A stretch of 64,000 nt of DNA from a virus, in IMG/VR virus record IMGVR_UViG_3300031414_000008, positions 1-64,000 of that record; one strand, written 5' to 3'. Position numbers and translations under genes: made by a program. The notes beneath the pieces are model-generated. The model was given only the letters and a program-made list of their open reading frames with translations. It did no database searches and had not been told where the DNA came from. Numbering within the stretch: the first letter of the stretch is position 1; every line of letters begins with the position of its first letter. Below are positions 20,349 through 36,608 of this stretch, in pieces.

Positions 20349-22188
20349 TGGCAGCGATCTGTTCTAACTTCACGTAGGACTCACCCAGGTTGGAGTAAGC
20401 ACTACGTAAGTTTGTCAGCATGTTACTCAGTGCCTCTGGGTCCAGTGATTCGGACAGTTTGTTTGAGTTAACACGGGCCAGGAACAGGGTACGGCCTAAG
20501 CGGTCGACAGCCTGTCCAATATCCGGGAGGTATTCGCTCACGGTACCGAACATATCAGGGTCGTTCAGCAGTTCAGAGATGATTGACGCTTCGATCACAG
20601 ACTTGTCTTTGGTCTTAGCGGCCGCACGGACACGATCTTCCATTCCGAGGCTACGTTCACGGTTGTTACCGGAGATTTGACGCTCTGGTGCCAACTTCTG
20701 ACCGTATTCCACGATCGGCGTAACCTGCGAAGCTTCAGCTGCTTCCTTCGACATGTGCATCTCAACTTTACGGTTCTCCTGTGCAGACTTCAGCAGTCGC
20801 TCAGAATCACCCGGCTGCAGTTTCAGTGTTTCCACCAGTACCTTCGCCGCTGGACCACGTCCGCCCACCGCACGACCATCGATCGCGAACTCACCGTTGT
20901 GGTAAGTCATCGTGTGGTACTCTGGCAGGACCATCATCGTACGGTGTTCGTGACGCACCATCGCAGAGGACAGTGAACGCTCGAATGAACCGCCGAATGC
21001 CGGAGAGAACCCGGTGTACACTTTGCACGAGGAGTTCAGGTAGATGTTCTTCGTGCCGTCTTCCAGTTGCTGAACGTGCATCAGACCATGCATGCCAGGG
21101 GTCACGACGATGTTCACACGGCCACCGTTCAGAAGGTTACCCTTCATGGTGATGGTGTCGCCGTCCATGATCGCCGGTCCACCGTTAGCACGGAACACGA
21201 AGTATCCGCAACCGTCGAAGAACACGAGGTGATCGTTCTGACCCTGCTCAACGAGAGCAAAGGCTTCGCCCGCATGGTATTCGTTCACGGCCAGCGTCTT
21301 GATGAAGTCATCGTACGGACGCTCTTGTTGGTGAATCACGATGCCCGGGTCGGTGAACGAGAACACGCCGGCTTCACCCAGAATCAGGATGCGTTTACCC
21401 TGGATATCCAGAGAAGACTGCGGCAGGACAGCGATCGGCACTTCATGCCCACCGATACCTTCAGCAGTGTACGCGTGACCCGGTTCGGCCGCTTGCAGAG
21501 TGGTGAAGTGGGAAGAACCATTGGACTCAACCACGACACGGGTCTGCTCGTGCTCACCGCGGATGTGATAGCCTTTCTCGAGGATGTCCTGGATGGCTTC
21601 GTTTGGCAGGCCGTCGCCGTCAAACAGCACGCGGGCAACCTTTTCCATGCTCTGGAAGCTCAGCTTCTCGTCAGACAGCAGGGATTCTTTCAGGGCCTGC
21701 ACGTCCAGAAGGTCGTACAGCTCTGCCGTCTTCTCGATCACGTCAGCCAGGTCCTTACGGATTTCCGGATGAGCCATCGCAATCAGTTCACCCATACGGC
21801 CATCAGAGGCGTACATGAACTTACCGGTACGTGGCGGAACCACGAGGTCTTTCATGTCCGGGTTCTTCACGGCGCCCTGAGGGATACGTGCAGCCATACC
21901 CACGTTCGCGTTCTGAGAGGACTGGATCTGCTCCAGGGTCTTCTTGGTTAACGGGAAGAACGCCTTACGATCAGCCAAATAGATGGAATCGATCGGGAAC
22001 GTCACGCCACCGCGTGAGATAACTGGGACGTAAAACAGGTTTCCACCGTTACGCATGATGAAGACGCCGACTTCAACCCCGTCTGAATCTTGCAGTTCAG
22101 AGGACATGTCCTTGAATGCGATTACGTACTTGCTCAGGCCGGGAGAGGCTGCGTTCAGCTTTTCCAGAGCCATTTGACTAAAATTCAT
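20341..22188 (-). CDS. Large hypothetical head-cluster protein
   Basis: 615 aa; GGAG RBS; upstream TAAAATA motif; MEKVAR, LLKSAQ, MSKEAA motifs. Confidence 0.8.
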   Translation of the reverse strand: MNFSQMALEKLNAASPGLSKYVIAFKDMSSELQDSDGVEVGVFIMRNGGNLFYVPVISRGGVTFPIDSIYLADRKAFFPLTKKTLEQIQSSQNANVGMAARIPQGAVKNPDMKDLVVPPRTGKFMYASDGRMGELIAMAHPEIRKDLADVIEKTAELYDLLDVQALKESLLSDEKLSFQSMEKVARVLFDGDGLPNEAIQDILEKGYHIRGEHEQTRVVVESNGSSHFTTLQAAEPGHAYTAEGIGGHEVPIAVLPQSSLDIQGKRILILGEAGVFSFTDPGIVIHQQERPYDDFIKTLAVNEYHAGEAFALVEQGQNDHLVFFDGCGYFVFRANGGPAIMDGDTITMKGNLLNGGRVNIVVTPGMHGLMHVQQLEDGTKNIYLNSSCKVYTGFSPAFGGSFERSLSSAMVRHEHRTMMVLPEYHTMTYHNGEFAIDGRAVGGRGPAAKVLVETLKLQPGDSERLLKSAQENRKVEMHMSKEAAEASQVTPIVEYGQKLAPERQISGNNRERSLGMEDRVRAAAKTKDKSVIEASIISELLNDPDMFGTVSEYLPDIGQAVDRLGRTLFLARVNSNKLSESLDPEALSNMLTNLRSAYSNLGESYVKLEQIAANV

Positions 22189-22214
22189 AGTTCGGTTCTC
22201 CGTTAAATAAACAG

Positions 22215-22221
22215 TATTTTA
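22215..22221 (-). promoter_or_regulatory. TAAAATA late-type motif
   Basis: 26 nt upstream of ATG 22188, at the head of the head-gene block. Confidence 0.6.
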
Positions 22222-23634
22222 ACCATTCGTCATGGCGTCGAGCAATTCCTTAGTCAGGGAATCCTTCGTGTCCGCCGTGTGCTTCAGGTAGTCGTCGATC
22301 CCTTGACCGCGATCAAAGTGTCCGAGGAACTTCGGTTTGGTCGCTGCGTAACGCATCACACGGACCTTACGTTCATTCTCCGGCAGGTGAGCGTGAGACT
22401 TGTAGCGGATGCCTCGGCCGATTACCTGGTTGATCTTCTCGTTGTTGAAGTGCGGCTCCATACCTTGGAATGATCGGGTGCCCTGGAGGTCAAGCCCTTC
22501 TGAGCCCGCCGAGGAGAGGAGAATCGCCTTCACTTTACCACTATTGTAATCCTCAACCGCTTGCTTACGCTCCGCGTCGGTCGTCTCACCGGTGAACAGG
22601 ACCGTCGGAATACCTTTCTCTTTCAGCTGGCGGTGTGTTTCTTCGAGGCCAGAACCCAGGTAGTTCGAGTAGATGATCCCCTTGTGATGTGGATTATCTC
22701 TCATCATGCCTTCAAAGTCACTGACGATTCGATCAATTTTTGTCGAGGACGGCTTTTTGGTCGTGAACCCGGCGTTCGTGTTACTGATCTGGCGGATCGC
22801 AGAGGAGAACGCGTTCAGGTTCTGGGCCTCTTTCTTATCCAGCGGCAGGTTCATACGGATCTTAAGTCGAAGCGGCAGCGGGATGGTCCCTTCAGCGTAC
22901 TGGTACGCACGGAGCTGGTCCTTGGACATGTCCACGTGGATGAGCTCGTCGGTCCGGTCCGGGAAGTCTTCCTTCATCTCTTTGATCGCGTCGAAGCGGT
23001 CCATGTAGTCCTTACCGATACGGCGAAGCATGGCTTTGTTCTTCACCGAGAGCTTCTCACCCGGGGTCACCCCGAGGATTCGCATCAGCATACCCGGCTT
23101 GACGACCTTCTTGTCGATGAACGCGTCGTCGAACTTGCCCGGGTCTTCCGGCATGACGTTCCGTCCGGCGGTCGTGTTGATCACCTTCGAGATGTCCGAG
23201 CGGTGGTTATAGATCGGCGTACCGGTCAGTAACAGTCGCTGCTTGGCGGACTGGGCAATCTCACGGACGGCGGCGGAGCGGAGCCCCGGGTTACGCAGAC
23301 GGTGAGCCTCATCCATGACCATGAAGTCGTACCCTTGGTCACGGTACTTCTCTTTACGCTTCGTGGCACCCTCATAGGTGTCCACGTCGATACGCTTACG
23401 GAGCTCTGGATCGATGCCGTGCTTGTCCATCTCCTTAGCCAGGTTGTTACGCAGTGGCGCAGGGACGACGAACAGGGCACGGCCCTCCTTTGACTTCGAG
23501 AGGGCCTGCTTAGCGGCATCCAGACTGGTTAGCGTTTTCCCCGAACCCATGGAGTGTGCAGCGAGGACCGATTGGCCCCCGCCGACTTTGTTACTCACAC
23601 GGGACTGATGATCACGTAACTTGGATTCAGCCAT
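22219..23634 (-). CDS. SNF2-family (SF2) helicase/ATPase
   Basis: Motifs HSMGSGKT (I), MDEAH (II), LLTGTP (III), SSAGSEGLDL (V), QVIGRGIR (VI); TAATG overlap with the upstream RNAP gene. Confidence 0.9.
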   Translation of the reverse strand: MAESKLRDHQSRVSNKVGGGQSVLAAHSMGSGKTLTSLDAAKQALSKSKEGRALFVVPAPLRNNLAKEMDKHGIDPELRKRIDVDTYEGATKRKEKYRDQGYDFMVMDEAHRLRNPGLRSAAVREIAQSAKQRLLLTGTPIYNHRSDISKVINTTAGRNVMPEDPGKFDDAFIDKKVVKPGMLMRILGVTPGEKLSVKNKAMLRRIGKDYMDRFDAIKEMKEDFPDRTDELIHVDMSKDQLRAYQYAEGTIPLPLRLKIRMNLPLDKKEAQNLNAFSSAIRQISNTNAGFTTKKPSSTKIDRIVSDFEGMMRDNPHHKGIIYSNYLGSGLEETHRQLKEKGIPTVLFTGETTDAERKQAVEDYNSGKVKAILLSSAGSEGLDLQGTRSFQGMEPHFNNEKINQVIGRGIRYKSHAHLPENERKVRVMRYAATKPKFLGHFDRGQGIDDYLKHTADTKDSLTKELLDAMTNG

Positions 23635-25454
23635 TAGTATTTCCCGTCTTTACCGTTACCGAAGTCACCGCCCAGGATGTAAGGGGTGATCGGGTCAGTG
23701 CTGGTTGCGGCAGATTCCATGCCGGTCGCCGCCGCTTCACGCAGGGTTTGGCCGATGCGTTTGAAGGCTAAGCGAGAAATCCAGTTCTGGTCGTTCAGTT
23801 TCACCGTCTTGATACCCGGAACGATCGGATCAACGATCAGACCTGAGTTCGACGTGTGGACTTCCGAGATGCCGTGCTTGTTCAGGTACTGAATGTGCTG
23901 GTGATCCAGGATTTGGCCAGGCATCAGCTCGAGGACTGGGCGAGCCAGCTTCTTACCGGCAGCACGCTCAAGCGGCAGCACTTCAGTATCCTTCTGCAGT
24001 TCGTGCTGGATGTGATTGATATCCAGAACCTGCCCTGGGAGATACCCGGTGTCGCCAGAGTCCTTCACCTTCACGTACTTGATCATGTTCTTCGCCACGA
24101 GGTCGAAGTGACGTGGGTCCATGCCACCGCCGTAGATTTCCGACAGCTTGTTCGACATGTAACGACGTCCAGCACCGATACCGCGGAGGTTCACCAGCTC
24201 ACGTGGATTAACCATACCGGTAGACAGTGGCTGACCGATCTTGACCTTGTGGCCCTCACCGACGATCACGTCCTGAGAGTTCGGAATGAAGAATTCCTTC
24301 CCAGAGATGTGCACCTTGGTATCACCCAGTGTCGTTGTCTCAACGTGAGAGACGGTACCGTTCACGTCAGAGATGATCGCCTTGTCAGGGAACTTCTCCT
24401 GGTTCGTCAGTAAGTTAGACGTCTGGTCGAACGGGTTCACAGACTTACCGGCCTTCGCATCGTGCTTGGTACCGAGGATCATCTGGGTCAGAACTTCGGA
24501 CGCAGACTGTGCGGCGATGACACCCACGTTCTCTCCGATTTCCGGCAGCTTACCGCGGGAATCCAGACCGTAACACTTCTGGCATACGCCTTCTTTGGCC
24601 TGGCACGTCAGGGTGTTGCGGACCTTGACCTGCTTCACACCGTCATGTTTAAGGTCTGCGAAGTAACGCTCATCGATGAGACGATCAGTACCCGCCTCGT
24701 AGTGGAAGATGATACGTTTCTTCTCGGACATCGGCTCTACGACACCGTTGTGGGTATGGCAGTCCGGAACCGTCACGACCTCGTGATAGAGGTTTGGCGT
24801 GATGGATTTGAACATGTCACCTGGCTTCGAAGTCGAGAGCTGGGCGGATACCGTGTTACCACGACCCCAGTAGGACATCGCTAAGTGCTCCGCTGGCGTC
24901 AGGCCTTCTGCGAACGAGTGAGTGATCGCTAAAGGAATTGGTGTACCGTCGATTCGCTTAGACTGCAGCGGGGATGACGTCGCCTGTTGGAGCTGGTTCG
25001 GGTTACCACGGGCACCGGTCTGAGCCATCAGAGCCGCGGTAGACTTTTGGCCCACCATGTAGTTCAGGTTCTGCTTGGTCAGGATCTTCCCGTAACGGTC
25101 TGCGAGGCCGGCCAGTTGCTCACGGCGTTCACGTTCTGACAGGTCAGGATGATCGTTGACGTGGTTCACCGCCGTCTCGTACTCGCCCAGGAGTGCTTGA
25201 CGTTCTTCAGAATCGTTGTAGTAGTCAGACAGTGGCGTTGAGTAGCCGTGTTCAGTCGCTGTGTTGAAGAAGAGATGGGATAGATCTGAGATCGTATCCG
25301 CGGCTTTCTCACCACCGTGCGTGATCACACTCGACATCAAGTCCTTGACACCATTTTTGTCTAGCAGCTTCGACGCATCGAAGTGCTTTTGTACTTCTTC
25401 AGGAAGCTTGCTCTTAATGAGTAGCGCTCCGGGAGTGATAATTTGAGTCATCAT
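23634..25454 (-). CDS. RNA polymerase beta-prime C-terminal half (RpoC2-like)
   Basis: Bridge helix SFAEGLTPAEH...GRGNTV, Zn site C...VRNTLTCQAKEGVCQKCYG, trigger loop GVIAAQSASEVLTQMILGTKH, C-terminal NWISRLAFKRIGQTLREAA; start at ATG 25454/25451 (AGGTG RBS). Confidence 0.92.
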   Translation of the reverse strand: MMTQIITPGALLIKSKLPEEVQKHFDASKLLDKNGVKDLMSSVITHGGEKAADTISDLSHLFFNTATEHGYSTPLSDYYNDSEERQALLGEYETAVNHVNDHPDLSERERREQLAGLADRYGKILTKQNLNYMVGQKSTAALMAQTGARGNPNQLQQATSSPLQSKRIDGTPIPLAITHSFAEGLTPAEHLAMSYWGRGNTVSAQLSTSKPGDMFKSITPNLYHEVVTVPDCHTHNGVVEPMSEKKRIIFHYEAGTDRLIDERYFADLKHDGVKQVKVRNTLTCQAKEGVCQKCYGLDSRGKLPEIGENVGVIAAQSASEVLTQMILGTKHDAKAGKSVNPFDQTSNLLTNQEKFPDKAIISDVNGTVSHVETTTLGDTKVHISGKEFFIPNSQDVIVGEGHKVKIGQPLSTGMVNPRELVNLRGIGAGRRYMSNKLSEIYGGGMDPRHFDLVAKNMIKYVKVKDSGDTGYLPGQVLDINHIQHELQKDTEVLPLERAAGKKLARPVLELMPGQILDHQHIQYLNKHGISEVHTSNSGLIVDPIVPGIKTVKLNDQNWISRLAFKRIGQTLREAAATGMESAATSTDPITPYILGGDFGNGKDGKY

Positions 25455-25481
25455 GTCACCTTTTCGTTGATCAACTAGTCG

Positions 25482-25497
25482 TATTTTAGGGTATAAG
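25482..25497. promoter_or_regulatory. Back-to-back promoter element TATTTTA-G-GGTATAAG
   Basis: At a divergent junction; same spacing at 27307 and 54558. Confidence 0.7.
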
Positions 25498-25522
25498 GAT
25501 AGTGTAAACAACAGGAGCAATT

Positions 25523-25789
25523 ATGAAAGGCATTACGCATCGTTACACCTTCCGTGTCTGGGAGTTCAATCATCCCGAACCTGGATACATCGATCCGGCA
25601 CACGTGCGGATGCAAGCGTTCTACCAAGATACTTACCTCTGGGGCGTCCGGATAAAACGTCGAGTGCTGTTCAAAGAGCAGGTTCCTAACTTCGCCTGGA
25701 TTCAACAGGGGTGCTGTGGTTGGTGTGACTGGAAGTCTGCGTGTCCGCCGGACATCTGGCTCCTCTGCACCGGTAAAGTCAAGGCGTGA
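25523..25789 (+). CDS. Hypothetical Cys/Trp-rich protein
   Basis: 88 aa, AGGAG RBS, downstream of GGTATAAG. Confidence 0.75.
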   Translation: MKGITHRYTFRVWEFNHPEPGYIDPAHVRMQAFYQDTYLWGVRIKRRVLFKEQVPNFAWIQQGCCGWCDWKSACPPDIWLLCTGKVKA

Positions 25790-25794
25790 AATCT

Positions 25795-25802
25795 GGTATA
25801 AG
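25795..25802 (+). promoter_or_regulatory. GGTATAAG phage promoter motif
   Basis: Recurrent motif upstream of + strand genes. Confidence 0.65.
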
Positions 25803-25849
25803 TAAAGTATAGAAACGAAGGGGTTTGCCCTCGTAAACGGAGAAATATT

Positions 25850-26212
25850 ATGGCTGCAACAATCGCTACGTCGTTAAAGGTGATTAAGCTTCAGGACCAC
25901 CCTATCAAGCTGGCTCAGTTTGACGGGACCACGTGGGTAGCTCTTAAATCGCTGACCAGCTTCTTGAATCTCGACTATGAGAAACAAGTCCGGACCCTGG
26001 CCGGTAACACGTCACTGTCTGCCCTTGGCAGTCCGACGATTGCCCCGCAGGCGAAGATGTTGGTTGACCCTGACGGGGTGCACGACATGTGGGTACCTAT
26101 GGGGGACGTTTCCCTGTGGGCATCGAAGTTGATCATGGAGGATATGACGAAGCTTGACCGTCAGAACCTCTGCACGCAACTTCTGCCTGGCCTGATGGCT
26201 AAGGCTTTCTAA
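25850..26212 (+). CDS. Antirepressor-N (P22_AR_N/BRO-N-like) DNA-binding domain protein
   Basis: IKLAQFDGTTWVALKSLTSFLNLDYEKQVRTL resembles the P22 Ant N-terminal pattern (V.l..i...lGl.w..Q..kl). Confidence 0.55.
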   Translation: MAATIATSLKVIKLQDHPIKLAQFDGTTWVALKSLTSFLNLDYEKQVRTLAGNTSLSALGSPTIAPQAKMLVDPDGVHDMWVPMGDVSLWASKLIMEDMTKLDRQNLCTQLLPGLMAKAF

Positions 26213-26231
26213 GAGGGGTAACCCTCTTTTT
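26211..26231 (+). terminator. Rho-independent terminator
   Basis: AAGAGGG-GTAA-CCCTCTT then T run. Confidence 0.7.
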
Positions 26232-26233
26232 CG

Positions 26234-26449
26234 CCTCCCGTTACATCAAAAGTTACACAGAAACCCAGTCGTGGTGCGGGTTTCAGAGGATTCAAACGTT
26301 GTAACCTTTCAAACGTCACCCTAAGACATCTATAGGTAGAGTCCTACTATATATATTACGAATGTCTTTTTTAAAAAATAAATAATATATGGACTCCCTA
26401 TATCTCTATAGGGGTGTGTTCAGGCCGGTTTGAACGGTTACAACGTTTG
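26234..26449. repeat. Origin-like element, copy 1
   Basis: Non-coding; 14-bp perfect inverted repeat CAAACGTTGTAACC (26293-26306)/GGTTACAACGTTTG (26436-26449) around an AT-rich core; about 100 bp near-identical to 63479-63581. Confidence 0.9.
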
Positions 26450-26472
26450 TCCCAGCCTGAACACCTGTCATA

Positions 26473-27141
26473 TCAAGCGTTCTGCTCGTACGACTGTTCT
26501 CGACGATCGGCGTAGTAACCTGCCATGTTCCCTGCAGCGTTACCGATACGTGACATTAAGTAGGCCGAACCCAGTGCCCCGCCGACGGCGAGTAACGGGT
26601 TGGTTTCACCCTTCATGATGATCCGGGTGGCGAGTGGGACAACGGACGCGATCCCCAGGGCGGACCCGAGGTTCGAGTACTGCGACTGCCGTTTACTCAT
26701 GATGTTCACGTGCGTCAAGGCTTCCGGAAGTACACCCGCTCGGTCGGCGACATCAATCCCGCCGTCGATGGCAGCGTCACCGGCTCGACCCGCGGCATAA
26801 CCCCCTGCTATGCTTCCCAGGAGCGCCCCTACGAGGCGTGCGTAAGGGTTCCCTTGGGCTACTAGCGCCCCGACCCGAGAACCCGCCACAGCGCCTCCTG
26901 CGGCTCCTGCGGTACGCACGGCGTCCTTAGCGACGTATGCGATATCATCCACCGGTCGTGTCCAGAGGGCTTGTTTGTACATCGGATCCTTACGCAGGAT
27001 CTGACGGACGCGGGCCTTCAGGTACGACAGGGCGAGCTTGTGCGGGCGAGGGTCTGTCATCGCCTTGAGCACGACTTTCGATTCCGGCGCCCGATAGGTT
27101 TCAACGGCTACGGGAACCGGGGTTGCGATGTCATTTGGCAT
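26473..27141 (-). CDS. Glycine-zipper-like membrane/virion protein
   Basis: 222 aa; AGAAGGAVAGSRVG...LLGSIAGGYAAGRAG and a second Gly-rich hairpin. Confidence 0.7.
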   Translation of the reverse strand: MPNDIATPVPVAVETYRAPESKVVLKAMTDPRPHKLALSYLKARVRQILRKDPMYKQALWTRPVDDIAYVAKDAVRTAGAAGGAVAGSRVGALVAQGNPYARLVGALLGSIAGGYAAGRAGDAAIDGGIDVADRAGVLPEALTHVNIMSKRQSQYSNLGSALGIASVVPLATRIIMKGETNPLLAVGGALGSAYLMSRIGNAAGNMAGYYADRREQSYEQNA

Positions 27142-27286
27142 TCTTACCTCTCAATTTCAGAGCACGACGGTACATGCCCTTTCCTGCCAGTCGGGTACCT
27201 TTGAAGAGACTACGCAGTGCGATGAACCCACCGATCGTAGCCCCGAGCTTGATCCCCTTGTCTAGATAGTCTAAATGATCGTTCAT
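27131..27286 (-). CDS. Small basic amphipathic protein (51 aa)
   Basis: Below the ORF-track cutoff; GGAGG RBS; MNDHLDYLDKGIKLGATIGGFIALRSLFKGTRLAGKGMYRRALKLRGKNAK; TAAAATA upstream. Confidence 0.65.
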   Translation of the reverse strand: MNDHLDYLDKGIKLGATIGGFIALRSLFKGTRLAGKGMYRRALKLRGKNAK

Positions 27287-27306
27287 AGTGTCCTCCATTC
27301 AGTGTT

Positions 27307-27322
27307 TATTTTAGGGTATAAG
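27307..27322. promoter_or_regulatory. Back-to-back promoter element TATTTTA-G-GGTATAAG
   Basis: Divergent junction; identical to 25482-25497. Confidence 0.7.
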
Positions 27323-27359
27323 AAAAGAGTACACAACACAGTTACTTTTGGAGATAAAC

Positions 27360-28229
27360 ATGCAGACAGGATCCGTACTGACTCTGAACTTTTACTCAAA
27401 CCCGATTGACGTGATGATCGGTGATGACCAAACGATCTACCTCAACTGGAAGCACTACTGCGACATGATCAGTAATGACCCTGAGATCGCCCCGCACAAC
27501 ATCACCCGCGGTGAATTCGATGTGGATTACGTTGCGTTTTCCTACGTCGTGCTCCACGCGGACAATCTCGTCTACGGTCACCCGGATCCGCTCTTCGCCA
27601 ATCTTGTCCGCGATGAGTTCCCGGGCTACATCATTAAGGAATTAGGCCTGATTCGGGAGATGATTCCGATGATTGACCTGCCTTACCACATGTACGACGC
27701 TGGCATCTTCCAGCACAACGGCAAACTGTTCGTCCTGGTCGATAAACTCAAACGCTTCACCAACCAGATCGAACCTCATATCCCGCTCGACGTCCCGCGG
27801 TTCCCGATCATGATCAAGGTGCAAATGCCTCGCACGGGGTTTGTCGCCTTCGGTGAACGCCCTAAGAAGGACGAGATGGCCTACCCGACGTGGATGGTTG
27901 AAGCTAACTCTCTGGCGTATATCGTGGAGTCATCTTACCGCAACCATCCGCCCTTTCAGGTCATGACGAATTGTATGGAGCATGCGATAAAAGTTAACAA
28001 GGGCTTTGACATCGAATCCCTTGGCCCTGCCCAGCGCTTCGACTCTCCGGGCATCGTCGGCACGCATCGCTGTGAGCTCGATCCGGAACAGGTCCAGGCA
28101 GTTCAAGCCCGGGATGCTATGATGAAGTCTAGTCGTTGGGAAGAGCCTAAGAACCTCTCTGGGTTGCTGTTTAACGAAGAGCCGATGACCTGGGCGGGCT
28201 CCGGGCTGACGCTCAAGTCCGAGTTGTAA
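27360..28229 (+). CDS. Hypothetical protein, possibly two BRO-N/Ant-N-like domains
   Basis: Start ATG 27360 (GGAG RBS); PIDVMIGDDQTIYLNWKHYCDMI and AGIFQHNGKLFVLVDKLKRF. Confidence 0.65.
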   Translation: MQTGSVLTLNFYSNPIDVMIGDDQTIYLNWKHYCDMISNDPEIAPHNITRGEFDVDYVAFSYVVLHADNLVYGHPDPLFANLVRDEFPGYIIKELGLIREMIPMIDLPYHMYDAGIFQHNGKLFVLVDKLKRFTNQIEPHIPLDVPRFPIMIKVQMPRTGFVAFGERPKKDEMAYPTWMVEANSLAYIVESSYRNHPPFQVMTNCMEHAIKVNKGFDIESLGPAQRFDSPGIVGTHRCELDPEQVQAVQARDAMMKSSRWEEPKNLSGLLFNEEPMTWAGSGLTLKSEL

Positions 28230-28251
28230 AATCAGGGCGGAGGTATCGCCC

Positions 28252-28581
28252 ATGCTAGTCACACTGTACATCAATGGACTCGCCGTTGATACGCTGAGAG
28301 ACAACAGGATTATCTACGTCGATATCGTGAAACTCTGGAAAACGCTGAAGATTCGGGAATACCGTCAACCTCTTCCGGCTAACCTGGAGCTCATCACGAA
28401 CGATTCGGATAAAGCCTACACCATCGGGAACTACTGTACGGTTGACGAGACGATGACAGCACTGAACGCTGTCCCGCCGGAAGCCTACGAGCAGCCAGCC
28501 CTGGGTGAAGTCATGAAGCGGGGACTCGTAGAAGTCCTGGACCGTTACTGGTCCGCTCAACCCGAGTTCTCACCTGTTTAA
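28252..28581 (+). CDS. Hypothetical protein, BRO-N/Ant-N-like
   Basis: GGAGG RBS; AVDTLRDNRIIYVDIVKLWKTLKI. Confidence 0.65.
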   Translation: MLVTLYINGLAVDTLRDNRIIYVDIVKLWKTLKIREYRQPLPANLELITNDSDKAYTIGNYCTVDETMTALNAVPPEAYEQPALGEVMKRGLVEVLDRYWSAQPEFSPV

Positions 28582-28600
28582 GGCCCTGCGGGGCCTTTTC
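28580..28600 (+). terminator. Rho-independent terminator
   Basis: AAGGCCC-TGCG-GGGCCTT-TT. Confidence 0.6.
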
Positions 28601-28613
28601 TATTGGAGTTGGC

Positions 28614-28931
28614 ATGAGAGCTGTGAAAGAAGGTAAGCAAGGCCAGAACGTGATGTCATATCATGGACTGGAATTCGTTAAGGACATTGGCCGTCCGTAC
28701 ATCGTTATCTCTTCAATTCGGAATACTGCCGCAGTCTCAGGCCCTGAGATCAAGGCTGCAGTAAAAACCCTAAGAGTCAGGCAGCATCGGCTGCTAGTTC
28801 AAAGGGGAACTCGGGAATTCCATGCAAATTGTATTCGACTGAAAGATCTCGCTGCCGTGGATCAACAACTCGGTGGGAAAATTACGGGAATAGTCGAAGA
28901 TCTCCTCAATGAGTATAGGAACTATCTATGA
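28614..28931 (+). CDS. Hypothetical protein, BRO-N/Ant-N-like
   Basis: GGAG RBS; GLEFVKDIGRPYIVISSIRNTAAV. Confidence 0.6.
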   Translation: MRAVKEGKQGQNVMSYHGLEFVKDIGRPYIVISSIRNTAAVSGPEIKAAVKTLRVRQHRLLVQRGTREFHANCIRLKDLAAVDQQLGGKITGIVEDLLNEYRNYL

Positions 28932-29530
28932 ACTTCTTTGGTAAAAACATTGATGTGACAAACATTGACGGACACTTCTATGTGAAACTCAATGGCGTAC
29001 TTCCCACGGACGTGATCACTGAGCATTCGTACTCAGTTGGCTTTCCGTTAGACAATGTCCTCCCGCTCCTCGGCTTACTTAAGGATACCGGTTGGGATGG
29101 GCTCTACAAGAGAGAATTGGTTAAGCACGTCGTCTACGACCGCGTGATGCTCCATCAGGACATGACCATTCCGACGATCGTTGATGTCGATCTCGGTAAA
29201 CGCATGCGAGTGTCCGCGTACGAAGAGGATGATGAGATCTGGGTGTGTGCCGTTCAAATCGAGCAACTCTCGGTGGGGATCCACTACGACCTCCGGGTTG
29301 CCGAGAACTTAAGACCTTCGCAGATCAATTATATCCACGTTCCGTTCCGGCCACGTCTTGTCTGGCAGAACGATCGGGAGATGGTGGTGTATTTCATCCC
29401 GCTGTCCCATGTGGATCAGTACTTCAAGAACCTGAGGACCGACTTCAACGCGAATTACGTTGACCCGCACATCGGGCGGCTTCAGGACAAAATCGAATCG
29501 ACTATCAAGGGGATGTCAAAGTGGATGTAA
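28928..29530 (+). CDS. Hypothetical protein, possibly two BRO-N/Ant-N-like domains
   Basis: ATGA overlap; NIDVTNIDGHFYVKLNGVL and RVSAYEEDDEIWVCAVQIEQL. Confidence 0.65.
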   Translation: MNFFGKNIDVTNIDGHFYVKLNGVLPTDVITEHSYSVGFPLDNVLPLLGLLKDTGWDGLYKRELVKHVVYDRVMLHQDMTIPTIVDVDLGKRMRVSAYEEDDEIWVCAVQIEQLSVGIHYDLRVAENLRPSQINYIHVPFRPRLVWQNDREMVVYFIPLSHVDQYFKNLRTDFNANYVDPHIGRLQDKIESTIKGMSKWM

Positions 29531-29730
29531 CACTGTTTGAAGAAGATGACAAGGGCAACCTCGTTGCTACTGCGGGTGATGTAACGGTCACGGTCGGTGT
29601 TCACAAGGACACCGTAATGATTGAGCAGGAAGGGGACAATGATGAACCTGACTTGATCATGATGTCTAATCCCGAACAGGTACAGGCAGTGATCGACAGA
29701 CTTCAGGATTTCCTGAACCTGCCGCAGTAA
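29521..29730 (+). CDS. Small acidic hypothetical protein
   Basis: 69 aa, GTG start, ends at a bidirectional terminator. Confidence 0.65.
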   Translation: MDVTLFEEDDKGNLVATAGDVTVTVGVHKDTVMIEQEGDNDEPDLIMMSNPEQVQAVIDRLQDFLNLPQ

Positions 29731-29764
29731 GAAAAACCCCAGGTCTCCCTGGGGTTTCTTTTTA
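29729..29764. terminator. Bidirectional terminator
   Basis: A run-CCCCAGG-TCTC-CCTGGGG-T run between convergent genes (GAGA tetraloop on the - strand). Confidence 0.85.
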
Positions 29765-32700
29765 GCCGATCTTAATCGGAGTGTTCGCGTCGATCTCGCC
29801 GGCATGCAGGGCTGCGAGTGCCTCCGCTTCCGTCTTGAACTCATGAACCTTCTTCTCCATGTCCGGCTTGGTCAGGTGCACAGAGCCGAGGATGGCTTCG
29901 TGGCCTGGGGCGAACATCGGCGTACCGTAACCGCGACGGGCGTCGTGCAGGTGGTTGCTCGGCATTAACTTCTCACGAGCTTCCTTCACGGCTTCCGGAG
30001 TCATCGGCAGATACATCGACAAGGCGTCACCGTCGTAGTCCGCAGCGTAGCCTGGCAGGTGCAGGATGTTCAGACCGATGGTCTTCCCGTCCGTCGGGAT
30101 TGGCTTCATCGCCATGACGTTGGTACGCATCAGCGTAGGAGCACGGTTCAGCAGTACTGGTACGGTGTCAACCATGTGGTTGAACGAAGCCATGGCTGCG
30201 TCGTTACGCTCTTCGTACGCCTTTTTAGCGTCGGCGAGGTCGTAGCCCTTCTGGGACAGGTCGCGGATGATGTGCATCTTGTACATCTCCCACAGCTGAT
30301 CCTTCGGAATCTTCGCCTCGTTGAAGCCTACGTCCGGCGCCGCGTAGATGGTACCACGACCGGAGAAGTCCTGTTTCTTCGACAGCAACTTACTCTGGAA
30401 GTAACCGTTCTTCGGCCCTTCGTTACCTTCGATCTGCTCCATCAGACCCTTGATACCTTTCTGCTTCGCTTGGAAGTCGATCGGTTCACCAGAGGCCATG
30501 ATCGCCTTCGCACCGTTGTACAGGTCACGACGCAGATCGACCATCCCTTCCATGTCCGGAGACAGCATGTCCATGCCGATCTCTTCGTCCAGACGCTTCA
30601 GACGGCCGTTCACCAGCATGTGGTGTTTGTACAGCTCGTTCACGTCAGCGTAAGACAGACGGCTACCCGAGATGGAGTACGGACGCATCACCGGTGGGAT
30701 AACCGGCATGTGGTTCAGGATGTACGCCTTCGATGGATCGCTGAAGCCTTGCTTGTCTAGACCCGCCAGGTACTTCATACGCTTCACCATCTTGTCACGC
30801 TTGGCGACAGACTTCTCGGTACCCACGGCTTCACGCAGATGAGCCAGCTCTTCCTGGACGTTGATGCTGCCCAGCATCTCCTTCATCGCGTGCCCGCCGA
30901 CCAGTGTCTCACCCGCCTCGGAAGCTTCCTTACCGAGCACACCAGAGGTGTTGATGCGTTTGATGATCTTGTCGTTGTCGTGCGTGTCGACCAGGTTGAA
31001 GTGACCGGCACCGACCTTCTGCACGCCGTACTTACCGCTGACCACGTGGTTGAACTCGTCTTTGTTCAGCCCAAGCAGGTGTTTCACCGGGTCTTCCATT
31101 ACTGGGTTGACGATCGGTTCCATCAGCTTGTAGTGAGACCAGTTCTTCCCTTCCGGACCGCCGGTGATGTTCATATCGAACAGACCACCTTTAACCGGTG
31201 CCACGTTACGGGCCAGGATCATGTCGGGCTTCTGGATTTCCCCAGCAGACTGAGACAGTACCTCGCGGTCGGTCATCGGGCCGGCAACCAGATTACCGTT
31301 ACGCTCAGAGACGGAAATCCCTGAACCCTTCAGGTAATCGAAGAACTTACGGGTCGCGAACGTCGTCTTCGGCTGCGGCAGTGGCAGGCCACGCATGAAC
31401 TTGTCCCAGTAGTCGTGAGTGTCAGCGTGGTCGCCGCCCTCAGACTTCACGGTACCGATCTCTTTCAGGTTCGCACGGGCGTTCGAGCCGAGCAGGCCCA
31501 GGAACTCCATGTAACCCACAGACTTCGCACCATCGTCACCACCCTTGGTAGGCTGGGCGTTGTTGTCGTAGCCGCCGACTGAACGGGCTGAGTAGTTCGC
31601 ATCCGTCGTCTTGTTCAGCTTCAGGATGTACTGCGGACCGGTCATGACCTTCTCGCCGTACACGTGGCCGGTCTTCGGATCGTACACCTTATCGGTGTCA
31701 GACAGACCATGCTCGTGCAGCTCGTCCTGCAGGTGCTTAACGATCGCCTTGCCGTCGCCGTGTTCGTAGACCTTGGTCTTGTACGGCTTGCCCGTCTTCT
31801 GAGCAATCTTACCGGCCGCGGCTTCGAAGACCTGACCCAGGTTGATACGGGAGGTTACGGACGCCGGGTTCAGAATCATGTCGAGCGGCTTACCGTTCGC
31901 ATGCGGCATCTCGTCGTCTTCCAGAATCAGGGAGACAACACCCTTGTTACCGTGCAGACCTGTTACCTTGTCACCGGTCTCGAGCTTACGCTCAGAGCGG
32001 ATCATGATGCGGACTTTCTTACCGTCGGTAGAACAGTCGGTTACCACACCTGGCTCTTCGTGATCCCAGATCTCAGCGGCTGAACGATATGGGTTAACCA
32101 GGGTCTTGTGCAGACGGCCCAGAACCATGTCGGTTTCAGTCAGCTGGCGTTGCTCGAGGACCGCGTAGACCGGGTCACCGTAGTGCAGCGTTACGCCTGG
32201 CTTAGCGAAGCCGCGAGAGTCGAGCTTATTCAGCTGCTCTGCAGTGAACTTGCCACCGAAGGACGCCTTGTACTTCGACAGGTCAGAGACCGTCTCTTTA
32301 CTGACGTTGTACTCTACCTTATAGGCGTGGTTCGAAGTCAGCTTCTCGGTCGCTGAACGAGATACAACGATACCATCTTCATGGTTGAAGCCTTTGAACG
32401 GCATGTAGGCCGTCTCGAGGTTCTTACCGATGGCGAAGTCGCCGTGCTTCGTGTAGTTGTTGTCAGACAGAACCTGACCGGCAACGACGTTGTCCCCTGC
32501 ATGCAGGTTGTGCGGTTCGTCGTCGTGGAAGCCCTTCATGTTGAACGGGAGGTTCTTCACGAAGTCTACACGGTGTTCTTTACCGTCTTCACCCTTGATG
32601 TGCACCGAAGTGGCATCGGCTTTGGTGACGGTACCTGTGACCGGGGCGACCGTCGAAACGATCTGGCCGATCTGCTTCACGAAGGTGTGACCGGCGTCAG

Positions 32701-34342
32701 TCACAGTCTGCACGAGTGGTGCTTCACGGTGAACGAGCGACAGTGCCTGAGGAATCGCCTTACCGGCCATGGTCAGACGACCTGGGTGGTTGGTGTTCAG
32801 GAACGGCACGAGGTTAGTCGTGATCGTGTACATGTCGGTACCGGACGGAATCCAGTACTCCACCTCTGAGCGAGGGATAGATTTGAACTCACCGTTGACC
32901 TGAGCCTGGACCTGCGGCTTGCCGTTCTTGCGGCCATCCGGGAAACCAATCTTCTTGGTCATCAGTTCGTTCGCTGACAGATAAACCGTCTTGCCGGTCT
33001 TGGCGTCGATCGCACGGGCGTACATTCCGCCTTCCTTGTCACGGCGGGCAGAAATGGTGAAACGCTGGTCCAGACCGGCAGAGGATGACTCTGGCGTACG
33101 GGACGGGTCGATGATCCCCAGGTTCGATGGGTGCACGTTACGTGACTCCATGGTCGCCTGACGTTCAGAGGACATCCCGCCTTCACCTTGAGCGATCAAC
33201 GTTACCTTACCGACGTTCTCGATGGACTCGATCGGGTTAGTTTCGTCCGGGGTTGATGACAGCTGAGAGCCGATCACGAAATCCGTGTAGATCTTGTTGA
33301 AAGGCTTGGCCGGCAGAACGTCACGCAGCGACGGAGCGTCGTCCTTCAGTTTGCTCAAGTTGAACTTGATGCGGTCGAAGGCTTTGCCTACGGTCTGGTG
33401 CTGCTTGTTCTCTTCGAAGCGACGGCCGATGAAGTCCGGCAGGTTCTGAACACGCTTGAACTGCAGGGAGTCACGGTTGTCTTCAGGACGCTTCTTCGAG
33501 TACACGGCAACGATGTTCTTCATCGCACGCAGCAGGGTTTCCGGCTCGATACCGCCGAAGGATTTACCCAGAGTGACTTCCGTCGTCTGCTTGTCCAGAG
33601 TCATTTCACCCAGACGGTGCTTCAGGGCAGCCCCCATCTCTTCCGGAGAAACAGACTTGGTCTGCTCACGACGGTCAACGAGACGACGGTACAGCTGGCT
33701 CAGCGCCAGGTCTTCTTTCCCTTGAGCAAGCTTCTTGTTCGCCTGCCATACTTCGGCCGGCACGAATTGCTGCACGTCGGCGTCAGACAGGCCAAAGCCC
33801 TTGGTCATCAACGGAGCGATAGGGATGTGCAGGTTCTTCCCGTTGATCTTCGAGAAGTAGATCTCCATCGATTTGGAGTCCAGGCCGAGAGAGAACGTCG
33901 CACCCTTACCGGTGTTGATGTTGGTCTCGAGCTCACCGTTCCCGGTCTTACGGGTATACACGCCCGGACGCAGCTGCATCAGGTTGGCTACGGAGTAGTT
34001 GTTCCCTTTGTACAGCAGCGTGTGCTTGTTGGTTACGTGGAAGGTATCCGCCAGGGCGAAGTTCTGGACACGGTCAAGCAGTTTCCCCGTCGCACGGTCG
34101 TGCAGGAGTAACGTACCCCGGATAGGGTACGTCAGGGAGCGAGACTGCAGGATAGCGTCCTTCTCATCGGCCGTGGTGTATTCCTTCTTGTCGACGTGCG
34201 GGTCCACCACGGTAAGGGTGTACTTGCCCGTCTCAATCGGGAATTGCTTAGTGATCCCTTCCATCATCGCACGATCAGTGGCATCGTTGATGTCACGAGG
34301 CGACGAGAAGATAGGGGTCAGTTCACTGGCTGACTTAGGCAT
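29762..34342 (-). CDS. RNA polymerase beta / beta-prime N-terminal half fusion
   Basis: beta motifs SQLS...NP, RNVHPSNLG..DP..TPE, FNHEDGIVVS, GDKVTGLHGNKGVV, DMILNP...SRINLGQ, YILKLN; then beta-prime motifs GEIQKP...GGLFD, LLSKKQDFSGRG, VLLNRAPTL and catalytic DYDGD (30026-30040). Confidence 0.95.
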   Translation of the reverse strand: MPKSASELTPIFSSPRDINDATDRAMMEGITKQFPIETGKYTLTVVDPHVDKKEYTTADEKDAILQSRSLTYPIRGTLLLHDRATGKLLDRVQNFALADTFHVTNKHTLLYKGNNYSVANLMQLRPGVYTRKTGNGELETNINTGKGATFSLGLDSKSMEIYFSKINGKNLHIPIAPLMTKGFGLSDADVQQFVPAEVWQANKKLAQGKEDLALSQLYRRLVDRREQTKSVSPEEMGAALKHRLGEMTLDKQTTEVTLGKSFGGIEPETLLRAMKNIVAVYSKKRPEDNRDSLQFKRVQNLPDFIGRRFEENKQHQTVGKAFDRIKFNLSKLKDDAPSLRDVLPAKPFNKIYTDFVIGSQLSSTPDETNPIESIENVGKVTLIAQGEGGMSSERQATMESRNVHPSNLGIIDPSRTPESSSAGLDQRFTISARRDKEGGMYARAIDAKTGKTVYLSANELMTKKIGFPDGRKNGKPQVQAQVNGEFKSIPRSEVEYWIPSGTDMYTITTNLVPFLNTNHPGRLTMAGKAIPQALSLVHREAPLVQTVTDAGHTFVKQIGQIVSTVAPVTGTVTKADATSVHIKGEDGKEHRVDFVKNLPFNMKGFHDDEPHNLHAGDNVVAGQVLSDNNYTKHGDFAIGKNLETAYMPFKGFNHEDGIVVSRSATEKLTSNHAYKVEYNVSKETVSDLSKYKASFGGKFTAEQLNKLDSRGFAKPGVTLHYGDPVYAVLEQRQLTETDMVLGRLHKTLVNPYRSAAEIWDHEEPGVVTDCSTDGKKVRIMIRSERKLETGDKVTGLHGNKGVVSLILEDDEMPHANGKPLDMILNPASVTSRINLGQVFEAAAGKIAQKTGKPYKTKVYEHGDGKAIVKHLQDELHEHGLSDTDKVYDPKTGHVYGEKVMTGPQYILKLNKTTDANYSARSVGGYDNNAQPTKGGDDGAKSVGYMEFLGLLGSNARANLKEIGTVKSEGGDHADTHDYWDKFMRGLPLPQPKTTFATRKFFDYLKGSGISVSERNGNLVAGPMTDREVLSQSAGEIQKPDMILARNVAPVKGGLFDMNITGGPEGKNWSHYKLMEPIVNPVMEDPVKHLLGLNKDEFNHVVSGKYGVQKVGAGHFNLVDTHDNDKIIKRINTSGVLGKEASEAGETLVGGHAMKEMLGSINVQEELAHLREAVGTEKSVAKRDKMVKRMKYLAGLDKQGFSDPSKAYILNHMPVIPPVMRPYSISGSRLSYADVNELYKHHMLVNGRLKRLDEEIGMDMLSPDMEGMVDLRRDLYNGAKAIMASGEPIDFQAKQKGIKGLMEQIEGNEGPKNGYFQSKLLSKKQDFSGRGTIYAAPDVGFNEAKIPKDQLWEMYKMHIIRDLSQKGYDLADAKKAYEERNDAAMASFNHMVDTVPVLLNRAPTLMRTNVMAMKPIPTDGKTIGLNILHLPGYAADYDGDALSMYLPMTPEAVKEAREKLMPSNHLHDARRGYGTPMFAPGHEAILGSVHLTKPDMEKKVHEFKTEAEALAALHAGEIDANTPIKIG

Positions 34343-34625
34343 TCAAACGTCTCTCCATATAAATTACCACGCAGGTGTAAACGCCGGTTACGTTCGAGAT
34401 GGTGTCCTTGCGGTCCATCACGATGATTTCCCCTGTATTGCTGCGGGTTAACAGCGATTCCAATGCCAGTGTGTCATCATCACCTTCGGCAGAGGGTGCA
34501 CCGATGGTGAAGTGCCCCACACGGTACACAAACAGTGCGGGGTCGAACTGGACGTCTTCTAACGCCGGGGACATCCCCGGCATTGAATTACCCTTGTTGC
34601 TGGGCTCCAGCGGATTCTGAGCCAT
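34335..34625 (-). CDS. Small hypothetical protein between portal and RNAP genes
   Basis: 96 aa, AGGAGG RBS, overlaps both neighbours. Confidence 0.7.
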   Translation of the reverse strand: MAQNPLEPSNKGNSMPGMSPALEDVQFDPALFVYRVGHFTIGAPSAEGDDDTLALESLLTRSNTGEIIVMDRKDTISNVTGVYTCVVIYMERRLNA

Positions 34626-36330
34626 TTGCTCCTCCTGGTTGTTCTTGTTCGTTGCTACCCGGGTTCGGCATATCGTTCAGCATACGCATCACTGTCTGAT
34701 ACATCGTCGGGTCGTCGTTCTGAAGTTTGAACAGGATATCACGTTGCTGTTCTGGTGTCTGTGCAGCCAGAACTTTTTTCGCGATATTGTACGCTTCTTT
34801 ACGGGAATCTTCGTATCCGGAAGAGTCCTTCTCGGACTGCAGGCCTTTCGACTTAGCGTGCATTGCACGTTCAAGCTTGAAGTCGATGTCGATTTGCTTC
34901 TCAGCCATGGAGATCTGATCGTCGCCCATCTTATCGAGCTCTTCGTCGTAGTCCATACCGTACGCTTCGAGCAGTGTAGACGCAGAGATGACTTTCTCTT
35001 TCCACATGTCGAGCATTGCGGCTTTCAGGGCTTCGTTATCCGTAAGTTTAAACGGCACGAGGTCCACTTCGGTGATCTCGATCGACAGATACTGTGCGAT
35101 CTTTTCCATGACCCAGTTGATCAATTCACGCAGCTGACCAACATAGTTGTTCATGGTGTTCTCGAGCAGACGCAGGCCCACGGTTGATGACGTCCAGTTC
35201 GTGGTACCGGACAGCAGCTCGCGGGATACGCCCATCGACATCAGCTGTTGCTCTTCCGCGTACTGCAGCTCCTGGTTCACGAGCAGTGAACGGCCCTGGC
35301 CTCCGATCTGCTGGTACCCGATTGGGGTCGGAGCGATCAGGATGTGGTTCGGATCGTTCTTCATGTGACGCATCGTCTTCTTCATGTGCTTCGCGAAGCC
35401 ACGCAGAGACATCTGGGCAATAGGGTCACCGCTTGCAGAGTTCTGCTGAGGGAACAGGACACGCAGTGGCACCATGTGCTCGGCCGCCACGGCTTCGTTC
35501 GCCTTACGTAGCATCTGCTGGTAGAACACCAGACCGTAGTGGGAAATCAGCGGAGGAATGCCCAGACCGTCAACCATGTTACCCATGGAGATAGACTTCA
35601 TGTGGTAGATGTTTGAGGAGTCGAACATGTAGTCCTTGCCGTAACGCACCGCGTCTACCATAGACCACGGCACAGTGGCCAGGAACAGTGGGTCGCCGTC
35701 CATGATCTTCCGCTTCACTTCACCAGGGATCGTGTAGTAGAACTCAGACTCACCGGTCACCGGGTTGTGGTTCATTGAAACGTGCTCAGGCTTCCACTTG
35801 ATCAGGTTGATACGGCTGATGTCACGGGACTTGGTGTCCACAACTTTGTACTGCACAGAGTTCATGCATGCTGGGCACTCGCCCTGGAAGACCCACTTCT
35901 TGAAGACGGCCGCATTCGTACGCATCGCTGAACGCACTTCGAAAGAAGACTTACAGTTCGGGCAGTGCAGGTGACGGTCAATCGGGAAGTAGATTGACGT
36001 GTACACGTTCCCGAGCGTGTAGTAATCGAAGCCGGTATCGGACATACGCTCTTTCAGGCGGATGCTCTTGAAGATACGCTTGTACGTCTCGATGGTTTGC
36101 TCGTTGTTCGACTCGATCGTGAACTCAGTGATCGGGTAAGATGACAGTTTGCGGATCACCTCAGTCGTTGTCGGCGCCTGAGTCGTGATGTAGCGAGACC
36201 ACTTGATGATATCGTGGAAGCTTCGCGGGACAAACTGGTTGGCCTGCGTGAAGAATGGGCTTGGCAGCTGACCGACTTCGTAGCTGTCCGCCATTCCGCT
36301 CGGCGTCGGGTTTAATCCAAACATTGACAT
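34588..36330 (-). CDS. Probable portal protein with inserted CxxC...CxxC zinc ribbon
   Basis: 580 aa; portal-like pattern (D..TLGNVYTSI; YHMKS....DGLGIPPL; GVSRELLSG; acidic coiled-coil tail); CPNC...CPAC insertion. Family call by eye only. Confidence 0.55.
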   Translation of the reverse strand: MSMFGLNPTPSGMADSYEVGQLPSPFFTQANQFVPRSFHDIIKWSRYITTQAPTTTEVIRKLSSYPITEFTIESNNEQTIETYKRIFKSIRLKERMSDTGFDYYTLGNVYTSIYFPIDRHLHCPNCKSSFEVRSAMRTNAAVFKKWVFQGECPACMNSVQYKVVDTKSRDISRINLIKWKPEHVSMNHNPVTGESEFYYTIPGEVKRKIMDGDPLFLATVPWSMVDAVRYGKDYMFDSSNIYHMKSISMGNMVDGLGIPPLISHYGLVFYQQMLRKANEAVAAEHMVPLRVLFPQQNSASGDPIAQMSLRGFAKHMKKTMRHMKNDPNHILIAPTPIGYQQIGGQGRSLLVNQELQYAEEQQLMSMGVSRELLSGTTNWTSSTVGLRLLENTMNNYVGQLRELINWVMEKIAQYLSIEITEVDLVPFKLTDNEALKAAMLDMWKEKVISASTLLEAYGMDYDEELDKMGDDQISMAEKQIDIDFKLERAMHAKSKGLQSEKDSSGYEDSRKEAYNIAKKVLAAQTPEQQRDILFKLQNDDPTMYQTVMRMLNDMPNPGSNEQEQPGGANGSESAGAQQQG

Positions 36331-36359
36331 GTGGTTTTCCTCATTAATTAGACTACCCG

Positions 36360-36366
36360 GATTTTA
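36360..36366 (-). promoter_or_regulatory. TAAAAT(C) late-type motif variant
   Basis: 30 nt upstream of the portal ATG. Confidence 0.5.
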
Positions 36367-36393
36367 GCGGATTCAACGATGGAAAGCCAGGAT

Positions 36394-36401
36394 GGTATAA
36401 G
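36394..36401 (+). promoter_or_regulatory. GGTATAAG phage promoter motif
   Basis: GGTATAAG-GAAG-GTGTA, 27 nt before ATG. Confidence 0.65.
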
Positions 36402-36428
36402 GAAGGTGTAACCAAACAGGAGAATTTT

Positions 36429-36608
36429 ATGAAATTACTTAATGGCCTGCAGCAGAGTTCCGTATCGATGACCACCATCCTGGCCGCCGGCGCTACCGTC
36501 ATGGTCGTTGCCTTGGCTATCACCGTCCGTGACCATCAGGACCGCATCGAAGATCTGGAGAAACGCTTGGCACTCGCAGGCGCTCCTGAAGTGGAGAAAG
36601 AAGAATGA
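36429..36608 (+). CDS. Small single-TM protein (LLxxLKQ family)
   Basis: 59 aa, AGGAG RBS; MKLLNGLQQ...ILAAGATVMVVALAITV...QDRIEDLEKRL. Confidence 0.75.
   Translation: MKLLNGLQQSSVSMTTILAAGATVMVVALAITVRDHQDRIEDLEKRLALAGAPEVEKEE

Follow-up and report, generated by a model that had tools for sequence, protein, structure and literature searches.

A phage gene joining the RNA polymerase beta subunit to the N-terminal half of beta-prime, and the two-polypeptide polymerase that it is predicted to help form

How far can the chain boundaries of a bacterial-type RNA polymerase be redrawn, and which subunits are needed once they have been? The question is raised by two genes in the DNA of an uncultured virus. 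The stretch studied here, referred to as the window, is the first 64 kb (64,000 nucleotides) of IMG/VR record IMGVR_UViG_3300031414_000008, a complete genome of 182,632 bp with 127-bp terminal repeats and 54% GC. The closest cultured relative of this virus is Salmonella phage Arash (OQ632216, 180.8 kb). One gene, at 29762-34342 on the minus strand, encodes a chain of 1526 amino acids that comprises a complete beta subunit and the N-terminal half of beta-prime through its double-psi barrel. The other, at 23634-25454 on the same strand, encodes the C-terminal half of beta-prime (606 amino acids; the C-half). To our knowledge, every cellular RNA polymerase requires an alpha-type assembly platform. 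The polymerases of phiKZ- and AR9-type phages are not known to require alpha or omega for their function. The best explanation of the whole of the results is a phage-owned, bacterial-type RNA polymerase of two polypeptides that descends from a single chain, has a covalent tether in place of alpha, uses its own sigma factors and is packaged in the virion, and we hold this explanation to be probable.

The fused chain carries the signatures of both large subunits in one reading frame. Pfam matches to Rpb2_3 (residues 366-432, E 3e-7) and Rpb2_6 (residues 628-934, E 1e-55), both of which pass the curated cut-offs, are followed in the same frame by Rpb1_1 (residues 1176-1309) and Rpb1_2 (residues 1363-1457, E 1e-15). 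Two PHROGs, 24349 and 25354, one a beta-like and one a beta-prime-like family, are likewise found on the single chain. In BLASTP comparisons with Salmonella RpoB, residues 263-723 align with 418-881 and residues 760-968 with 1040-1296; with RpoC, residues 1028-1061 align with 30-63 and residues 1148-1514 with 180-546 (31% identity, E 2e-48). The beta module spans residues 1 to about 1011 (31310-34342, minus strand), and its barrel contains HGNKG at residues 797-801. The motif FFDYLKGSGISV occupies residues 1000-1011 (31310-31345), followed by GEIQKP at 1034-1039, SGRG at 1327-1330, NRAPTL at 1399-1404 and DYDGD at 1435-1439. The beta-prime N-terminal half, residues about 1014-1526 (29765-31303, minus strand), contains the clamp helices and the catalytic barrel. 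Its catalytic magnesium loop, AADYDGD at residues 1433-1439 (30026-30046, minus strand), is a variant of NADFDGD, and all three aspartates are invariant in the alignment of relatives.

The two modules meet in the segment formed by residues 1000-1039 (31226-31345, minus strand). Extrapolated from the alignments on either side, the beta C-terminus is predicted to join the beta-prime N-terminus near residue 1010 without an added linker, and about 15 residues may have been trimmed at this point. The zinc ribbon segment of beta-prime is deleted after GGLFD; since the whole fused chain has a single cysteine, the N-terminal zinc ribbon of beta-prime is absent. The fold model of the junction segment, residues 860-1126, was too poor to search or interpret (mean predicted local distance difference test score, pLDDT, 57; predicted template modeling score, pTM, 0.25).

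A long open reading frame (ORF) of this kind could be an artefact of assembly or a frameshift that joins two genes, a concern already voiced in the original prediction, which was made from the letters of the window. Contigs from three unrelated studies in Logan (a 9-kb contig, a soil contig of 37 kb and a plant RNA-library contig of 19 kb) span positions 29728-34700 with 77-104 substitutions and zero gaps. The plant RNA-library contig (run X7) is counted as an independent assembly only, since a contig is no evidence of transcription. Codon position 3 of the fused frame takes 39 of the 40 listed differences, and these fall on both sides of the junction. Arash and the Vibrio phages D69, D181 and D148 (57% identity) likewise have the junction within a single ORF, as do 31 of 31 related IMG/VR loci. 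The Arash ortholog, Gp206, is 93.8% identical to the fused chain and sits in a conserved surrounding gene order, and its peptide coverage was 100% (PMC10585845). An artefact is not supported by three independent assemblies that are free of indels and keep the third-position bias across the junction, nor by the uninterrupted ORF in other phages and the peptides of Gp206, and its probability is close to nil. The two-chain layout is real, conserved and under purifying selection.

The remainder of beta-prime is encoded by a gene of its own, which begins with an ATG at 25454 preceded by the Shine-Dalgarno sequence AAGGTG. Its product matches Pfam Rpb1_5 and aligns in BLASTP with Salmonella RpoC 724-936 and 1154-1298; it contains the bridge helix, the trigger loop and the second zinc site, and the proteobacterial SI3 insert is absent. 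Its best matches among solved structures are bacterial beta-prime throughout, down to E 2e-49. The chain has exactly four cysteines (C232, C284, C291 and C294; 24573-24761, minus strand), all at the second zinc site, in the RpoC segment that holds the zinc site of E. coli. It is the ortholog of Arash Gp216 (92% protein identity). These assignments agree with the original prediction, in which beta was fused in frame to the N-terminal half of beta-prime, with both barrels in one chain, and the bridge helix, trigger loop and second zinc site were placed in a separate gene starting at 25454, some 4.3 kb away beyond mostly opposite-strand ORFs.

The point at which beta-prime is cut resembles that of the cyanobacterial enzyme. 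The end of the fused chain corresponds to about residue 558 of the 624-626 residues of cyanobacterial gamma, and residue 28 of the C-half aligns with residue 5-12 of cyanobacterial RpoC2. These alignments place the phage break in the same inter-domain linker as the cyanobacterial split, roughly 25-65 residues upstream, and so near the RpoC1/RpoC2 point, as had been proposed, and not at it. The virion and non-virion polymerases of the phiKZ type are likewise split after the beta-prime barrel (Sokolova review, PMC7598289).

The distance between the two polymerase genes varies, from 0.6 kb in Vibrio phage D69 and locus L016 to 4.3 kb in the window and 1.5-4.8 kb in other relatives. In the window the variable insert (25455-29733) contains mostly plus-strand ORFs, GGTATAA sites at 25490, 25795 and 27315, and one minus-strand structural gene (26473-27141). 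Directly 3' of the stop of the fused gene is a GC-rich hairpin with a 10-bp stem (29734-29757), which ends the converging plus-strand cassette and probably also the transcript of the fused gene. Contigs of relatives part from the window sequence at 29728. The hairpin region (29728-29757) is also where contigs of other samples, about 98% identical, cease to match, and forms a boundary of the cassette.

Is this layout peculiar to one lineage? A junction probe, residues 880-1130 (251 residues), was searched against 1.84 billion cluster representatives and found 426 of them at E<=1e-30; the best 150 of the 426 all span the junction in one stretch. Among these best 150, 58 are complete single chains that include the C-half (about 1935-3370 amino acids), 48 consist of beta and the beta-prime N-terminal half as in the window, and about 10 consist of beta and the first 100 or so residues of beta-prime. 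The junction is common to at least 400 protein clusters, the complete members of which are mostly single chains. Single-chain relatives run on without loss exactly where the two chains of the window end and begin, and their genes adjoin sigma70-family and terminase genes on phage-like contigs. The single-chain polymerases P0162 (2026 amino acids) and P0216 (2056 amino acids) of uncultured phages have the same junction and the same domain order as the window, in one polypeptide instead of two. A third layout, seen in IMG/VR loci, divides the enzyme into beta with about 110 beta-prime residues, the middle of beta-prime, and the C-half. A comparison of split points, which the original prediction had proposed, finds that the same two-chain cut recurs among relatives and that single-chain and three-chain states exist beside it.

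The direction of change was addressed with trees of the shared beta and beta-prime N-half region, using Salmonella, Acinetobacter and Enterococcus as outgroups. In the FastTree analysis (120 rows, 1428 columns), all two-chain forms (49 of 49), all three-chain forms (9 of 9) and one single-chain form fall in one clade with a support of 99, and the other 58 single-chain forms, including the P0162/P0216 type with sigma and terminase genes nearby, lie outside it. Three-chain forms constitute a monophyletic group (support 99) that is sister to the subclade of the window, Arash and D69. IQ-TREE (LG+C20+F+G4, 40 rows) recovered the same split clade with a support of 99. Throughout the split clade, the C-terminal ends next to the cut are homologous to one another. 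Since the split forms nest in one clade of outgroup-rooted trees, it seems most economical to conclude that the two-chain layout descends from a single-chain enzyme by one split after the beta-prime barrel, with cassettes inserted later.

Mobile elements are found in or near these genes. LAGLIDADG-type inteins lie within the polymerase chains of many family members (e.g., P0130, P0132, P0133 and P0161) and account for chain lengths of 1800-3300 amino acids. Genes with a J-domain-like HPD motif or of the RRXRR type are inserted exactly at the cut sites of relatives, namely at the additional cut of the three-chain layout, and in one IMG/VR locus an HNH homing endonuclease gene splits beta at residue 517/518 (loci listed jointly for these cases: L022:13327-15240, L024:4669-5337, L035:11752-12357, L038:13620-14681 and L021:11816-12445). 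In Vibrio phages D181 and D148, a homing endonuclease is located inside the fused gene. On the P0162 contig (ENA ERZ24794672), IS605-type OrfB/TnpB and Y1 transposase genes lie about 3-4 kb upstream of the single-chain gene, beside the polymerase-sigma-terminase block. When 185,579 species genomes were scanned twice with limited patterns, one scan was empty and the other returned one 4.3-kb contig, which is weak evidence that bacterial chromosomes lack the family. That contig (L048, CALMKR010000196.1), from a metagenome-assembled genome binned as an uncultured bacterium, is the sole family member from these genomes; it is short and is therefore probably phage DNA binned with its host.

What completes the enzyme? 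No match to alpha (PF01000, PF01193) or omega (PF01192) was found in the complete 182,632-bp genome at E<=10, and 14 of 14 control genomes were positive. The genome contains a single polymerase set, made up of one unsplit beta module and one C module of beta-prime. It also has two sigma70 region-2 matches. The first belongs to a sigma70-family gene of 331 amino acids in the window (42928-43923, minus strand; Pfam Sigma70_r2, E 6e-10), the ortholog of Arash gp196, which is not in the Arash virion list. The second sigma70-family gene encodes 234 amino acids (genome positions 149,800-150,504, minus strand) and matches region 3 at E 6e-10 and regions 2 and 4 weakly. It is the ortholog of Arash Gp10, with equal length and the same place after a cell-wall hydrolase gene in the structural cluster. 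A complex prediction of the 234-amino-acid sigma with the beta-prime N-terminal half gave a median score of 0.28 against a mark of 0.32. The earlier observation that alpha and omega genes are unrecognisable and a sigma70-family gene is present holds across the complete genome, with two sigma genes.

The absence of these genes could also mean that the phage chains combine with the alpha and omega of the host into a hybrid enzyme, and that the fusion is a neutral relic. In favour of this, the chains are clearly of bacterial type: their identity to Salmonella beta and beta-prime is 27-31%, and phmmer scores against bacterial subunits are 190-208 bits for beta and 104-158 bits for beta-prime. The junction, however, is kept throughout a family that comprises hundreds of divergent phages, the hosts of which are presumably diverse, and the phage polymerases of the phiKZ/AR9 type lack alpha and omega subunits (Sokolova review, PMC7598289). 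A hybrid enzyme is, in our judgment, quite improbable. In the preferred explanation of a phage-owned enzyme, the covalent link from beta to beta-prime would take over from the alpha-dimer assembly platform, since the genome is without an alpha or omega gene.

Evidence on packaging comes from Arash, the gene layout of which is the same as that of the window gene for gene: Gp206 and Gp216 (94% and 92% identity), the sigmas Gp10 and gp196, and the helicase Gp217. Mass spectrometry of gradient-purified Arash particles detected Gp206, the fused-chain ortholog, with 3516 spectra, more than any other protein; the C-half ortholog Gp216 with 1210; the SNF2 helicase Gp217 with 1148; and the 234-amino-acid sigma Gp10 with 467 (PMC10585845). 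Computed per residue from the same data, these four proteins have about 2.0-2.4 spectra, compared to 1.5 for the portal (PMC10585845). The similar values fit a roughly equimolar co-packaging of Gp206, Gp216, Gp217 and Gp10. The polymerase might nonetheless act outside the virion, being synthesised late in infection or over its whole course, with early transcription left to the host polymerase and the Arash signal due to carry-over. The Arash preparation held 116 of 252 proteins, metabolic enzymes such as ribonucleotide reductases and kinases among them, and its authors allow for cytoplasmic carry-over (PMC10585845). Carry-over does not readily explain why both chains, Gp10 and the helicase have similar length-normalised counts that exceed that of the portal (PMC10585845), and all four genes are within structural operons on the structural strand. 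A solely non-virion role seems rather unlikely. The holoenzyme is probably packaged and injected, because its genes are in late structural operons and the Arash orthologs, together with the sigma and the helicase, are abundant in virions.

A promoter-like element provides a candidate site of action. It has the form tGGTATAAg(t/a)a...GTGTAAAC (in short, TGGTATAAG...GTGTAAAC), precedes a Shine-Dalgarno sequence and an ATG, and occurs in the complete genome 41 times on the plus strand and once on the minus strand. The window contains 14 sites (2.7 expected), at 25490, 25795, 27315, 36394, 36851, 37034, 40608, 41068, 44050, 54566, 60367, 61915, 62111 and 63704. The element resembles the extended -10 promoter class and appears to serve only the plus-strand, non-structural genes. 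The copies at 25490 and 36394 point away from the polymerase and portal genes, toward divergent small ORFs. A sigma70 consensus scan of 22000-37200 found 9 sites, with 8.6 expected from shuffles. The C-half gene had been credited with a promoter of its own; this claim is unsupported, because the element at 25490 is oppositely oriented and faces a divergent plus-strand ORF, and the consensus scan finds no excess over the shuffle level.

A mechanism can be proposed from these results. One chain would contribute beta and the beta-prime N-terminal half with both double-psi barrels, and the other would contribute the beta-prime C-half. The catalytic elements are intact, and DNA-dependent RNA synthesis by this core is predicted. 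The core would be directed by the two sigma70-family factors of the phage. The holoenzyme, packaged and injected with the SNF2 helicase, would initiate transcription without the host polymerase, possibly at the TGGTATAA extended -10-like promoters of the phage; the virion sigma (234 amino acids), which has region 3, may read these GGTATAA promoters. The specific version, in which a two-chain core, compact sigma and SNF2 helicase are injected as a sigma-dependent machine that acts independently of the host polymerase, and in which the tether enables assembly without alpha, is offered as a tentative proposal, to which we give somewhat less than even weight.

Besides the breadth of the Arash preparation, several points weigh against these interpretations. 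The activity, assembly and promoter use of the two-chain enzyme and its relatives are predictions, and the pairing of each sigma with a promoter class is guesswork. The core might use host alpha or omega. The sigma70 consensus scan of 22000-37200 identified no promoter for either the fused gene or the C-half gene. The root of the trees rests on three bacterial outgroups and a long branch. Finally, the single-chain form P0187 sits inside the split clade, and its position implies either that splitting took place twice or that one lineage re-fused.

The phage of the window shares this layout with others. Arash has the same neighbours in the same order, namely the portal, a small ORF, the fused gene, a variable insert, the C-half and the SNF2 helicase; the window differs in coming from an uncultured relative with a genome of 182.6 kb. 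The original prediction had left open whether the architecture was already described. The genes are indeed deposited, for Arash and Vibrio phage D69, as ordinary 'beta' and 'beta-prime'. The Arash paper and record (OQ632216; PMC10585845) label Gp206 'beta' and Gp216 'beta-prime', and the fusion and the split are unmentioned. The literature searched, which included Weinheimer 2020, Sokolova 2020, Iyer 2021 and a 2026 jumbo-phage review and had most subscription journals outside its scope, yielded no description of the fusion in phages and no paper on single-chain beta-beta-prime phage polymerases.

Among cellular enzymes, a beta C-terminus continuous with the beta-prime N-terminus is found in the rpoB-rpoC fusion of Helicobacter and Wolbachia and in an engineered E. 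coli beta::beta-prime tether. These are cellular polymerases with alpha, omega and a full-length beta-prime. The phage enzyme differs from such fusions in that beta-prime is recut after the barrel and has lost the zinc ribbon, and in that genes for alpha and omega are absent. RpoC1 (gamma) and RpoC2 of cyanobacteria and plastids have the break in the same linker, but beta is a separate gene in cyanobacteria and fused in the phage. The phiKZ/AR9 polymerases are like that of the window in being phage-encoded, without alpha or omega, split in beta-prime after the barrel and present in a virion-packaged version; they differ in that beta is also split, into two or three pieces, and in having two paralogous sets and no sigma70-family factor (PMC7598289). 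In the window, beta is whole and fused, and the genome has one set and two sigma70-family genes.

It had also been suggested that the window belongs to the metagenomic mReC lineage of polymerase-encoding phages. Both are tailed phages with recognisable bacterial-like beta and beta-prime (PMC7481178). However, mReC contigs encode separate full-length beta (920-1560 amino acids) and beta-prime (900-1370 amino acids) and gp23-type capsids (PF07068) (Weinheimer & Aylward 2020, PMC7481178), whereas the chains of the window have 1526 (fused) and 606 amino acids and its capsid ORF (13294-14217) has only a weak match to the HK97 Phage_capsid family. The sample identifiers of six related IMG/VR loci were absent from the mReC tables (PMC7481178). 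In phmmer comparisons, the two chains score lower, at 51-115 bits, with the separately encoded subunits of three cultured phages (Cobetia phage Carin-5, Rhizobium phage RHph_Y65 and Vibrio phage Va2) than with bacterial beta and beta-prime. With subunit layout and capsid type both different, the evidence does not support placing this phage in the mReC lineage.

The genes next to the polymerase genes include potential partners. The structural strand holds both polymerase genes. Downstream of the C-half is an SNF2-family helicase gene (22219-23634, minus strand; Pfam SNF2-rel_dom, ResIII and Helicase_C), followed by head genes. The start of the helicase gene overlaps the stop of the C-half gene, and the two are translationally coupled. 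The helicase is a candidate polymerase accessory factor and, by analogy, could act like RapA; in Vibrio phage D69 the helicase does not follow the C-half. On the other side, the portal gene (34588-36330, structural strand), a conserved gene for a 96-amino-acid protein (34335-34625, minus strand) and the fused gene overlap successively, the small gene overlapping the end of the portal gene and the start of the fused gene. Its homologs occupy this position in both the two-gene and the three-gene clade. The 96-amino-acid protein is modelled with a disordered N-terminus and then a beta-alpha-beta-beta domain (pLDDT 74); it has no Pfam family, and Foldseek found nothing in the PDB at E<=0.001, with only weak dodecin-like or ACT-like rows. 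The protein was considered as an omega-like subunit and rejected: its fold is not helical, it lacks a Pfam or PDB match, and its Arash ortholog, Gp205, is outside the virion list.

In hundreds of phage lineages, a bacterial-type core of one or two chains, with neither an alpha nor an omega gene, is functional or at least maintained by strong selection, and sigma70-family factors are kept. For structural and synthetic biology, the family is a natural minimal system for the assembly of the large subunits and the docking of sigma. For evolution, it is a case in which the chain boundaries of an essential enzyme have been redrawn, from a single chain to two and then three, with inteins and homing endonucleases at or near the cuts. 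The cultured member, Arash, which grows on a laboratory strain of Salmonella, makes the system testable by experiment. If true, a holoenzyme packaged in the virion would add a third mechanism of host-independent early transcription to those of the N4-type and phiKZ-type virion polymerases, and if the machine is injected and free of alpha, the family would represent the minimal natural bacterial-type RNA polymerase.

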